Of a stretch of DNA of 64,000 nucleotides, positions 28,374 through 46,775 are shown one piece after another. Below the pieces are notes generated by a model that saw only the letters and a program-made list of their open reading frames with translations, did not search any database and was not told the origin of the DNA. Source of the DNA: Escherichia coli. Lineage in GTDB: Bacteria; Pseudomonadota; Gammaproteobacteria; Enterobacterales; Enterobacteriaceae. Position 1 is the stretch's first letter. Each line of letters begins with the position of its first letter. A program made the translations under genes and the position numbers. The DNA is taken from the NCBI RefSeq assembly GCF_030013595.1, contig NZ_CP122768.1, one strand, 5' to 3'.

Positions 28374-28429
28374 ATTTAAAATCCCTCGGCGTTCGCGCTG
28401 TGCGGGTTCAAGTCCCGCTCCGGGTACCA
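28374..28429 (+). tRNA. leuZ: Partial tRNA-Leu (leuZ-type, anticodon TAA), 3' 56 nt only (anticodon loop to CCA); prophage attachment-site core
   Basis: Sequence aTTTAAAATCCCTCGGCGTTCGCGCTGTGCGGGTTCAAGTCCCGCTCCGGGTACCA matches the 3' part of E. coli tRNA-Leu(UAA); the 5' half (acceptor and D arms) is replaced by phage sequence. Confidence 0.8.
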
Positions 28430-28472
28430 TGGGAAAGATAAGAATAAAATCAAAGCAATAAGCAGTGTCGTG

Positions 28473-32186: not shown

Positions 32187-32202
32187 TGTGATTTGCATCA
32201 CA
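32187..32202. promoter_or_regulatory. CRP binding site (TGTGA-N6-TCACA) in the azuC promoter region
   Basis: Perfect match to the CRP half-sites, upstream of azuC. Confidence 0.6.
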
Positions 32203-32284: not shown

Positions 32285-32371
32285 ATGAAACTGCGCAAAA
32301 TCCTGAAAAGTATGTTCAATAACTATTGCAAGACGTTCAAAGACGTACCGCCAGGCAATATGTTCCGATAA
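32285..32371 (+). CDS. azuC: Small protein AzuC (28 aa; dual-function AzuCR RNA)
   Basis: Translation MKLRKILKSMFNNYCKTFKDVPPGNMFR read by hand; followed by a terminator. Confidence 0.8.
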   Translation: MKLRKILKSMFNNYCKTFKDVPPGNMFR

Positions 32372-40061: not shown

Positions 40062-40490
40062 TTAATCTCCCGTAAGTGGAACTAACAGCACATCGACCTC
40101 ACTTGAGGCAATCACTCTTTTCGCCGAGCAGGATGCTCGCGAAAAGAAACTGTGATTGTGATTACCGCAAATCACCAAATCGAAATGATATTTGCGACAA
40201 ACTTCCAGAATATGTTCGCTTAACTCACCGTAGGCAATAAACGTCTTGTCAACGGGATACCCCGCATCCTGAATTAACTTATCAAGAAAGCTTTGCGTTT
40301 CTTCCTGCATCACGCTGCGTAAATCTTCAAGCATCGGCGCAGCTAATTGATTGTACATTTCCGGGTCGGAAGCGAGAGTAATTAAACTGATGTGTCCCTT
40401 TACTGGCCTGGCGATAGATACCGCTTTTGCCAGCAGTTGCTGACTTTCCGGTGTAACCGCAACAGCGACAAGAATATTGCTATAGCTCAT
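40062..40490 (-). CDS. uspC: Universal stress protein UspC
   Basis: 142-aa Usp-family ORF; synteny. Confidence 0.9.
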   Translation of the reverse strand: MSYSNILVAVAVTPESQQLLAKAVSIARPVKGHISLITLASDPEMYNQLAAPMLEDLRSVMQEETQSFLDKLIQDAGYPVDKTFIAYGELSEHILEVCRKYHFDLVICGNHNHSFFSRASCSAKRVIASSEVDVLLVPLTGD

Positions 40491-40992
40491 AACCTGTTCC
40501 TTATTCTGTGAACTTCAGGTGACATTAAAGCTTTACTCCTAATGGAGAAACGACGCAATCCCAACTCAGTCAAACAGGTAAATATTAGTCTGATTATTAG
40601 TAAAGACAATTAATCAATCACTCTCGGTGATCATATGATTTCAACTGTAATTATAAGAAAATAATGTACTGATTCCCCATATTAAACAAGTGGTTAATAT
40701 ATGTAAAACATTTTATTAACATTAAGTTGATTGTTGCCTTTCTTTGTATTTAATTAGTTTGTTGTGCGGTAAGTGTCTGTTTAAAAATAGCTTATCTGGT
40801 ATTGCATTAAAGCAATTATTTATAGCAGATGATTATTTACGGTGAGTTATTTTAACTGTGCGCAACATCCCATTTCGATTATTCCTGTTTCATTTTTGCT
40901 TGCTAGCGTCGCGAAAAACTTTTTAACAGATTGAAATACACCCAAAACAAAAGTATGACTTATACATTTATGTTAAGTAATTGAGCGTTTTG

Positions 40993-41008
40993 TGTGATCT
41001 GCATCACA
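40993..41008. promoter_or_regulatory. CRP binding site (TGTGA-N6-TCACA) in the flhDC promoter region
   Basis: Perfect CRP half-sites about 260 bp upstream of the flhD ATG, consistent with the known CRP-activated flhDC promoter. Confidence 0.6.
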
Positions 41009-41269
41009 CATTATTGAAAATCGCAGCCCCCCTCCGTTGTATGTGAGTGTAGTGACGAGTAAAGTTGCGTCGATTTAGGAAAAATCTTAGATAAGTGTAA
41101 AGAACCCTTTCTATTTGTAAGGACTTATTAAACCCAAAAGGTGGTTCTGCTTATTGCAGCTTATCGCAACTATTCTAATGCTAATTATTTTTTACCGGGG
41201 CTTCCCGGCGACATCACGGGGTGCGGTGAGACCGCATAAAAATAAAGTTGGTTATTCTGGGTGGGAATA

Positions 41270-41620
41270 ATGCATACCTCCGAGTTGCTGAAACACATTT
41301 ATGACATCAACTTGTCATATTTACTACTTGCACAGCGTCTGATTGTTCAGGACAAAGCGTCCGCTATGTTTCGTCTCGGCATAAATGAAGAAATGGCGAC
41401 AACATTAGCGGCACTGACTCTTCCGCAAATGGTTAAGCTGGCAGAAACCAATCAACTGGTTTGTCACTTCCGTTTTGACAGCCACCAGACGATTACTCAG
41501 TTGACGCAAGATTCCCGCGTTGACGATCTCCAGCAAATTCATACCGGCATCATGCTCTCAACACGCTTGCTGAATGATGTTAATCAGCCTGAAGAAGCGC
41601 TGCGCAAGAAAAGGGCCTGA
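41270..41620 (+). CDS. flhD: Flagellar master regulator FlhD
   Basis: Sequence recognised ([19 protein letters not shown]...). Confidence 0.95.
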
Positions 41621-41622
41621 TC

Positions 41623-42201
41623 ATGAGTGAAAAAAGCATTGTTCAGGAAGCGCGGGATATTCAGCTGGCAATGGAATTGATCACCCTGGGCGCTCGTTTG
41701 CAGATGCTGGAAAGCGAAACACAGTTAAGTCGCGGACGCCTGATAAAACTTTATAAAGAACTGCGCGGAAGCCCACCGCCGAAAGGCATGCTGCCATTCT
41801 CAACCGACTGGTTTATGACCTGGGAACAAAACGTTCATGCTTCGATGTTCTGTAATGCATGGCAGTTTTTACTGAAAACCGGTTTGTGTAATGGCGTCGA
41901 TGCAGTGATCAAAGCCTACCGTTTATACCTTGAACAGTGCCCGCAAGCAGAAGACGGACCGCTGCTGGCATTAACCCGTGCCTGGACATTGGTACGGTTT
42001 GTTGAAAGTGGATTACTGCAACTTTCCAGCTGCAACTGCTGCGGCGGCAATTTTATTACCCACGCTCACCAGCCTGTTGGCAGCTTTGCCTGCAGCTTAT
42101 GTCAGCCGCCATCCCGGGCAGTAAAAAGACGTAAACTTTCCCAGAATCCTGCCGATATTATCCCACAACTGCTGGATGAACAGAGAGTACAGGCTGTTTA
42201 A
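41623..42201 (+). CDS. flhC: Flagellar master regulator FlhC
   Basis: Sequence recognised; Zn-binding Cys cluster. Confidence 0.95.
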
Positions 42202-42327
42202 CTTATACGGTGTGGCGCAACATTCCAGCAGCGGTAACGACGTACCGCTGCTTTTTTTTGCCCCAATCGCGCGTTAACGCCTGACGACTGAACATCCTGT
42301 CATGGTCAACAGTGGAAGGATGATGTC

Positions 42328-43211
42328 GTGCTTATCTTATTAGGTTACCTGGTTGTTCTCGGTACAGTTTTCGGCGGTTATTTGATGACCGGTGGAAGCC
42401 TTGGAGCACTCTATCAACCCGCTGAACTGGTGATTATTGCCGGTGCAGGGATTGGGTCGTTTATCGTCGGCAATAATGGCAAAGCGATTAAAGGCACGCT
42501 GAAGGCGCTGCCGTTGCTGTTTCGTCGCTCCAAATACACCAAAGCAATGTATATGGATCTGCTGGCTCTGCTTTATCGGTTGATGGCGAAATCGCGGCAG
42601 ATGGGGATGTTTTCGCTGGAACGTGATATTGAAAATCCCCGTGAGAGCGAGATCTTCGCCAGCTACCCACGCATCCTTGCGGATAGCGTCATGCTTGATT
42701 TTATCGTCGATTATCTGCGTCTGATTATCAGCGGTCACATGAACACCTTCGAAATCGAAGCCCTGATGGATGAAGAGATTGAGACGCACGAAAGCGAAGC
42801 AGAAGTCCCGGCGAACAGTCTGGCGCTGGTCGGGGACTCACTTCCGGCGTTTGGTATTGTCGCGGCTGTGATGGGGGTCGTTCACGCGTTAGGTTCAGCC
42901 GATCGTCCTGCCGCCGAGCTGGGGGCGCTTATCGCACATGCGATGGTGGGGACTTTCCTCGGTATTTTATTGGCTTACGGATTTATTTCCCCATTAGCGA
43001 GTGTTTTACGTCAGAAAAGCGCCGAAACCAGCAAAATGATGCAGTGCGTCAAAGTCACACTGCTTTCTAATCTGAACGGTTACGCACCGCCTATCGCCGT
43101 TGAGTTTGGTCGCAAAACGCTCTATTCCAGCGAACGTCCGTCGTTTATTGAACTGGAAGAGCATGTGCGTGCGGTGAAAAATCCGCAACAACAGACGACA
43201 ACCGAGGAAGC

Positions 43212-46631: not shown

Positions 46632-46657
46632 TTCTCCCGATTTCCTCAATTGCAATG

Positions 46658-46690
46658 AACCCGATGACCTGCGCATCGGGTTTTTTATTT
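46658..46690 (+). terminator. Rho-independent terminator after cheW (end of the motAB-cheAW operon)
   Basis: aacccgatg ... catcgggtt followed by T-run. Confidence 0.6.
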
Positions 46691-46775
46691 CAGTTTCGCG
46701 GCGGGTGGCATCAGCAATAAAGTTTCCCCCTTCCTTGCCGATAACGAGATCAACTTGTTTTCAGGAAGGTGCCTT

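Follow-up and report, generated by a model that had tools for sequence, protein, structure and literature searches.

The uspC-flhD intergenic region of an Escherichia coli genome is free of insertion sequences at all documented target sites examined

Some laboratory lineages of Escherichia coli K-12 carry IS1 or IS5 elements upstream of flhDC that raise motility (PMC5100188, PMC4183435, PMC11237407), the copy in MG1655 being IS1H. In K-12, the IS-free state is one of poor motility and should not be read as a normal one (PMC4183435, PMC11237407), and insertions at this locus increase motility while lowering acid survival (PMC11237407). A thyA cassette placed at the IS sites likewise gives motility, and activation is therefore ascribed to disrupted upstream repression rather than to a promoter carried by the IS (PMC4183435). 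The same spacer has been hit in nature-derived material as well: insertions there make EC958, a natural strain of ST131, more motile (PMC5425062).

The DNA surrounding these insertion sites has many described inputs. H-NS, LrhA, OmpR, RcsAB, IHF and Fur are listed as binders of the upstream and leader DNA of flhDC (PMC5493358, PMC5425062), with RcsAB among those listed for this DNA in the first of these papers (PMC5493358). The literature further describes a “cAMP/CAP site at -72” for flhD and an antisense RNA, AsflhD, which starts 22 nt inside flhD (PMC9600491). The flhD leader is a target of the small RNAs McaS, ArcZ, OmrA/B and OxyS and of CsrA (PMC3634460).

We analyzed this locus in a stretch of 64,000 nucleotides from E. 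coli (contig NZ_CP122768.1 of assembly GCF_030013595.1), hereafter the window. We consider it very probable that positions 40491-41269 hold the ancestral, uninterrupted flhDC class-I regulatory region of E. coli, belonging to a natural-isolate lineage rather than to K-12, and nothing in the evidence contradicts this structural reading. An IS-free region upstream of flhDC is already known and ordinary. Its documentation here is useful bookkeeping for motility, biofilm or acid-stress work with the source strain, and the population context of the CRP and -10 alleles is a mildly useful by-product.

The uspC-flhD spacer and its empty insertion sites

The open reading frame listing and annotation transfer place the spacer at 40491-41269, which is exactly the interval given in the initial annotation, with a length of 779 bp. 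On one side lies uspC (40062..40490, minus strand), a 142-aa reading frame with no internal stop that encodes universal stress protein C and is divergent from flhDC. Its product is identical to UspC of strain VCSW5 and differs from the K-12 protein at three amino acids. On the other side, flhD begins with an ATG at 41270. The wider gene order runs from otsBA, beyond uspC, through divergent uspC and flhDC around a spacer of about 780 bp to motAB-cheAW after flhC. The spacer has a G+C content of 34.7%, compared with 50.5% for the window's chromosomal portion, and individual 200-bp segments drop to 27-32%. The initial description of about 780 bp of native, AT-rich sequence was accurate.

In MG1655 (NC_000913.3) the spacer is 1555 bp long, and the window aligns with it collinearly and without indels except for one block. 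The additional MG1655 sequence consists of the annotated IS1H (768 bp) and an extra CATTTATG 8-mer, and the arithmetic closes exactly (1555 - 768 - 8 = 779). This 8-mer flanks both ends of IS1H in MG1655 and is present in a single copy in the window, at 40965..40972. Counted from the flhD transcription start at 41072, as are all signed positions in this article, the empty IS1H target lies at -107..-100.

We also searched for IS elements directly. With MG1655 IS1H, IS1B, IS5A, IS30A, IS3A and IS911A as queries in a sensitive blastn search (word size 7), the whole window gave only chance matches to IS1, IS5, IS30, IS3 and IS911, of 12-27 nt and with E >= 0.2; the matches to IS30A were likewise of the chance kind (E >= 0.79). 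No match to the 20-nt IS termini was found in 40401-41350, even with up to six mismatches tolerated. A repeat finder returned no IS-like terminal inverted repeats; its output was limited to two weak 13-nt pairs, one direct and one inverted, both unlike IS ends. The initial annotation, which had proposed an alignment against MG1655 as the check and IS terminal repeats as evidence against its claim, was therefore correct that no IS lies upstream of flhD: the alignment shows an empty IS1H site in a collinear spacer, and neither terminal repeats nor similarity to the IS elements searched for came to light.

The remaining insertion sites tell the same story, and all of the documented targets examined in the spacer are empty. 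Read from the sequence, the tetranucleotide TTAG at 40754..40757 (-318..-315) corresponds to the distal K-12 IS5 insertion reported at -315 (PMC5100188; PMC5493358, legend of Fig. 4), and CTAG at 40903..40906 (-169..-166) to the IS5 target reported at -166 (PMC5100188); both are unoccupied. So is TTAA at 40973..40976 (-99..-96), the hot spot at which many motile K-12 strains carry IS5 (PMC5100188). The position at which the pig isolate EC24 carries an IS1 is unoccupied too, and we place it at 40890..40898 (-182..-174), as the EC24 flanks align up to 40898 and again from 40890, implying a 9-bp duplication.

The genes that this region would control are intact. The 116-aa flhD product (41270..41620, plus strand) is identical to K-12 FlhD, and the 192-aa flhC product (41623..42201, plus strand) has one conservative difference, E111D. 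A further 13 genes, namely motA, motB, cheA, cheW, tar, tap, cheR, cheB, cheY, cheZ, flhB, flhA and flhE, are open at full length, so that all 15 motility genes from flhD to flhE are open. IS-mediated loss of flhDC of the kind seen in non-motile lineages (strain E05 or the Shigella type), whether through insertion into flhD or flhC or through an IS that borders a deletion, is not the case here.

Promoter, leader and allelic differences from MG1655

The flhD start at 41072 was transferred from MG1655 coordinate 1978395, which is the end of AsflhD, and is not a measured start. More generally, the start, CRP and IS positions used here derive from secondary literature statements and MG1655 annotation, which we checked against one another. 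The transferred start agrees with a CRP site at -71.5 and with IS5 targets at -99..-96, -169..-166 and -315. The initial annotation had placed a CRP site in the region, and a pattern search bears this out with the predicted cAMP-CRP site TGTGATCTGCATCACA (40993..41008, plus strand), which is centred at -71.5 from the transferred start and agrees with the consensus in both half-sites. A CRP site at about -71.5/-72 is a feature by which native flhDC class-I regions are recognized, and it is present. The perfect consensus occurs twice in the 64 kb, where 0.05 occurrences would be expected by chance. The other occurrence, TGTGATTTGCATCACA (32187-32202), falls between yecR and azuC, some 83 bp upstream of azuC (32285-32371), which encodes a small protein.

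We assign the -10 hexamer to TAAAGT at 41060..41065 (plus strand), which differs by an SNP at 41062 from the TACAGT of K-12 and most E. coli. The putative -35 hexamer, TTGTAT at 41037..41042 (plus strand), precedes it by 17 bp, a placement that also suits the transferred start. A scan for consensus sigma-70 promoters passed over the flhD promoter; its only two candidates lay on the minus strand, a number not above chance expectation. The flhD promoter was missed because its -35 hexamer matches the consensus at just three of six positions; such a miss is expected for an activator-dependent promoter, yet it is not positive evidence for one.

The 5' untranslated leader that follows the transferred start is 198 nt long (41072..41269, plus strand) and has no indels relative to K-12. 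On the opposite strand, AsflhD was transferred from MG1655 ncRNA b4839 (1978176-1978395) to 41072..41291, and its promoter region is identical to K-12 over the first 69 nt of flhD. The sequence TAGGAAAAATCTTA at 41076..41089 (+5..+18, plus strand), identical to MG1655, occupies what we take to be the RcsAB-box position. Downstream, the sRNA MotR was transferred from MG1655 ncRNA b4828 to 42165..42259 (plus strand), with two SNPs in the 163 nt compared. Rfam gave no match in 40300-42400, even at E <= 1, and the predicted fold of the leader is no more stable than that of shuffled sequence (z = -1.1). Elsewhere in the window, two RNAs reached Rfam gathering scores: MicL at 59974-60281 (plus strand, 365 bits), within and just past the 3' end of cutC, and C0465 RNA at 46651-46728 (minus strand, 100 bits), in the cheW-tar spacer. 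The reported cis elements of the K-12 flhDC region are all present and collinear in the window.

From the K-12 and ST131 work, we infer the following roles for these elements. A weak sigma-70 promoter (TTGTAT, 17 bp, TAAAGT) would direct transcription from about position 41072 and would depend on cAMP-CRP bound at -71.5 (40993-41008). Some 500 bp of AT-rich DNA further upstream would serve as a platform for repressors and nucleoid proteins (H-NS, LrhA, OmpR, IHF, Fur and others) and keep basal expression low, and the 198-nt leader would carry the post-transcriptional inputs, namely sRNAs, CsrA and the antisense AsflhD. An IS entering the upstream platform would displace repression and so raise motility in some strains. 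The trans regulators, such as LrhA, OmpR, RcsB and H-NS, lie outside the window, and IS absence speaks for cis architecture only.

Within that cis architecture, the window is not a copy of the reference. Its spacer shares 96.9% identity with that of MG1655; of the 24 SNPs between them, three fall in promoter elements: -64 in the CRP site, -26 in the promoter spacer and -10 in the -10 hexamer. Five more are in the leader (+33, +36, +54, +64 and +159). At -64, the CRP half-site reads TCACA, which is the consensus, compared with TCACG in K-12; at -26, the window has A and MG1655 has C; and at -10, the change is the one between TAAAGT and TACAGT. None of the promoter or leader SNPs is a lesion. 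The initial annotation took the absence of an IS to indicate wild-type flhDC regulation, and of this the cis architecture stands as ancestral; regulation itself is not established by it, given SNPs in the CRP site, at -26 and -10 and in the leader.

These differences raise the alternative that the region, although IS-free, does not regulate as the reference does, and that lineage alleles (the consensus CRP half-site, -26A, the TAAAGT hexamer and the five leader SNPs) set another basal level of flhDC. In that case, the term wild-type regulation, as understood from K-12, would be out of place. The number of SNPs and the location of three of them in defined promoter elements are what this alternative would call for, and the core promoter is uncommon: among 5387 complete E. 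coli genomes, just 270 (5%) contain the exact 56-mer at 41030-41085. Like K-12, most genomes have two mismatches to it. The haplotype also belongs to a distinct set of strains, as the two that we aligned, 746 and WCHEC96200, carry the same combination of -26A, -10A, +33A and +64C. The CRP allele points the other way: 4225 of 5387 genomes (78%) have an exact copy of the 40-mer around the site, so that on these counts TCACA is the species majority and the TCACG of K-12 the minority, unusual form. As for the -10 hexamer, C and A are both non-consensus at its third position, and the effect of that change may be small. Weighing the two sides, we think a different set-point unlikely, and prefer the reading of an ancestral, uninterrupted region. 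Slightly less likely again, by our estimate, is the narrower proposal that the minority haplotype (-26A, -10A, +33A and +64C, in about 5% of genomes) could shift the basal level or the CRP dependence of flhDC. If it did, motility would be tuned in nature through point mutations, a route distinct from IS insertion.

Lineage and population context

The spacer is 100% identical in the soil isolate VCSW5 and the human isolate KE55, and 99.9% identical in pig isolates including HCP5S3_I2. At 99.9% identity, the agreement with HCP5S3_I2 also covers window positions 1-40500, the last 10 bp or so of which belong to the spacer. In seven other diverse E. coli, the spacer measures 779-780 bp and aligns collinearly, without indels.

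The spacer was found in 5421 of 5426 complete E. coli genomes. To estimate how often it is uninterrupted, we drew an evenly spaced sample of 60 from the genomes that have it; 56 of these carried an uninterrupted spacer of 776-781 bp, two (an MG1655 derivative and the pig isolate EC24) had an IS1 within it, and two (E05 and EV36 mutant 5a) had a spacer truncated by an IS and a deletion. The larger BLAST count, with at least 80% of the spacer in one place in 5271 of 5421 genomes, is not equivalent to an uninterrupted state, since IS1-sized gaps get joined. No more than 101 of 5426 genomes had the IS1 junction of MG1655. The IS-free state is thus the species default, held by roughly nine in ten sequenced E. 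coli, and not a distinguishing feature of this strain.

The IS1 of EC24, at -182..-174, is independent of that in MG1655 and in the opposite orientation. In E05, an IS1 is accompanied by a deletion of flhDC-motAB-cheAW that extends into tar. For EV36 mutant 5a, the match to the spacer stops at 40977 and gives way to an IS5, at the TTAA of -99..-96, with flhD and the 5' part of flhC deleted.

The lineage data bear on two further explanations of the empty sites, both of which we hold to be very improbable and have dropped, as neither left a trace. One is that an IS present in the real genome was lost from the sequence through a repeat collapsed or skipped in assembly; IS elements are known to disturb assemblies, and with no positive evidence for such a loss here, it is opposed by the tendency of repeats to break contigs and seldom to vanish cleanly, by seamless junctions with every target site in single copy, and by the identity of the spacer in two independent complete genomes. 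The other, equally remote, is that the spacer once held an IS that was later precisely excised, as the existence of K-12 stocks with mixed IS+ and IS- populations might suggest (PMC11237407); no footprint is left and no 4-, 8- or 9-bp target is duplicated, the haplotype is common to other IS-free natural isolates, and precise excision, being traceless, is not needed as an explanation.

The same lineage data qualify the frame of the initial annotation, which had set this region against laboratory K-12 strains with motility-raising insertions. Such strains exist, and the comparison is factually right; the window is not K-12, its spacer being nearer to a pig strain (99.9%) than to MG1655 (96.9%), and the comparison is uninformative for this strain.

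A separate feature of this chromosome is the prophage at the start of the window (positions 1-28430), which combines head genes of the lambda type with a contractile tail like that of P2. Over 88% of its length, it matches Escherichia phage vB_EcoM-705R4 at 93.6% identity. The prophage adjoins a 3' fragment of tRNA-Leu (leuZ) at approximately 28374-28430, just before yecA, and ARAGORN found no complete tRNA in the window. In VCSW5, that position is free of prophage and the glyW-cysT-leuZ tRNA cluster is intact. The terminase large-subunit gene (8087-10048) contains an in-frame amber codon, TAG, at 9035-9037, where the HCP5S3_I2 prophage (99.9% identical) has TGG (Trp); in HCP5S3_I2, the same gene is interrupted by ISVsa5. 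The two lesions look like independent inactivations, on the strength of which the prophage is probably defective.

Comparison with described flhDC upstream regions

Set beside the described systems, the region shares with the IS-free, poorly motile K-12 strains (such as BW25113 and IS-less MG1655 stocks) the 779-bp length, the gene order and the element positions, without indels. It differs from them by the 24 substitutions, by TCACA in place of TCACG and TAAAGT in place of TACAGT, and by its natural-isolate lineage. The IS-activated K-12 alleles, with IS1H at -107..-100 in MG1655 (CGSC 7740 / U00096) and IS5 at -99..-96 in the RP437 and MC1000 types, occupy the same locus and the same target sequences, whereas in the window these sites are empty. 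The uspC-IS30-flhDC marker of wastewater-adapted E. coli (PMC5007776) involves the same intergenic region, here without IS30. Among natural isolates, VCSW5 is without the leuZ prophage that the window carries; in the spacer itself, VCSW5, KE55, HCP5S3_I2, 746 and WCHEC96200 are 98.6-100% identical to the window, with no difference of consequence.
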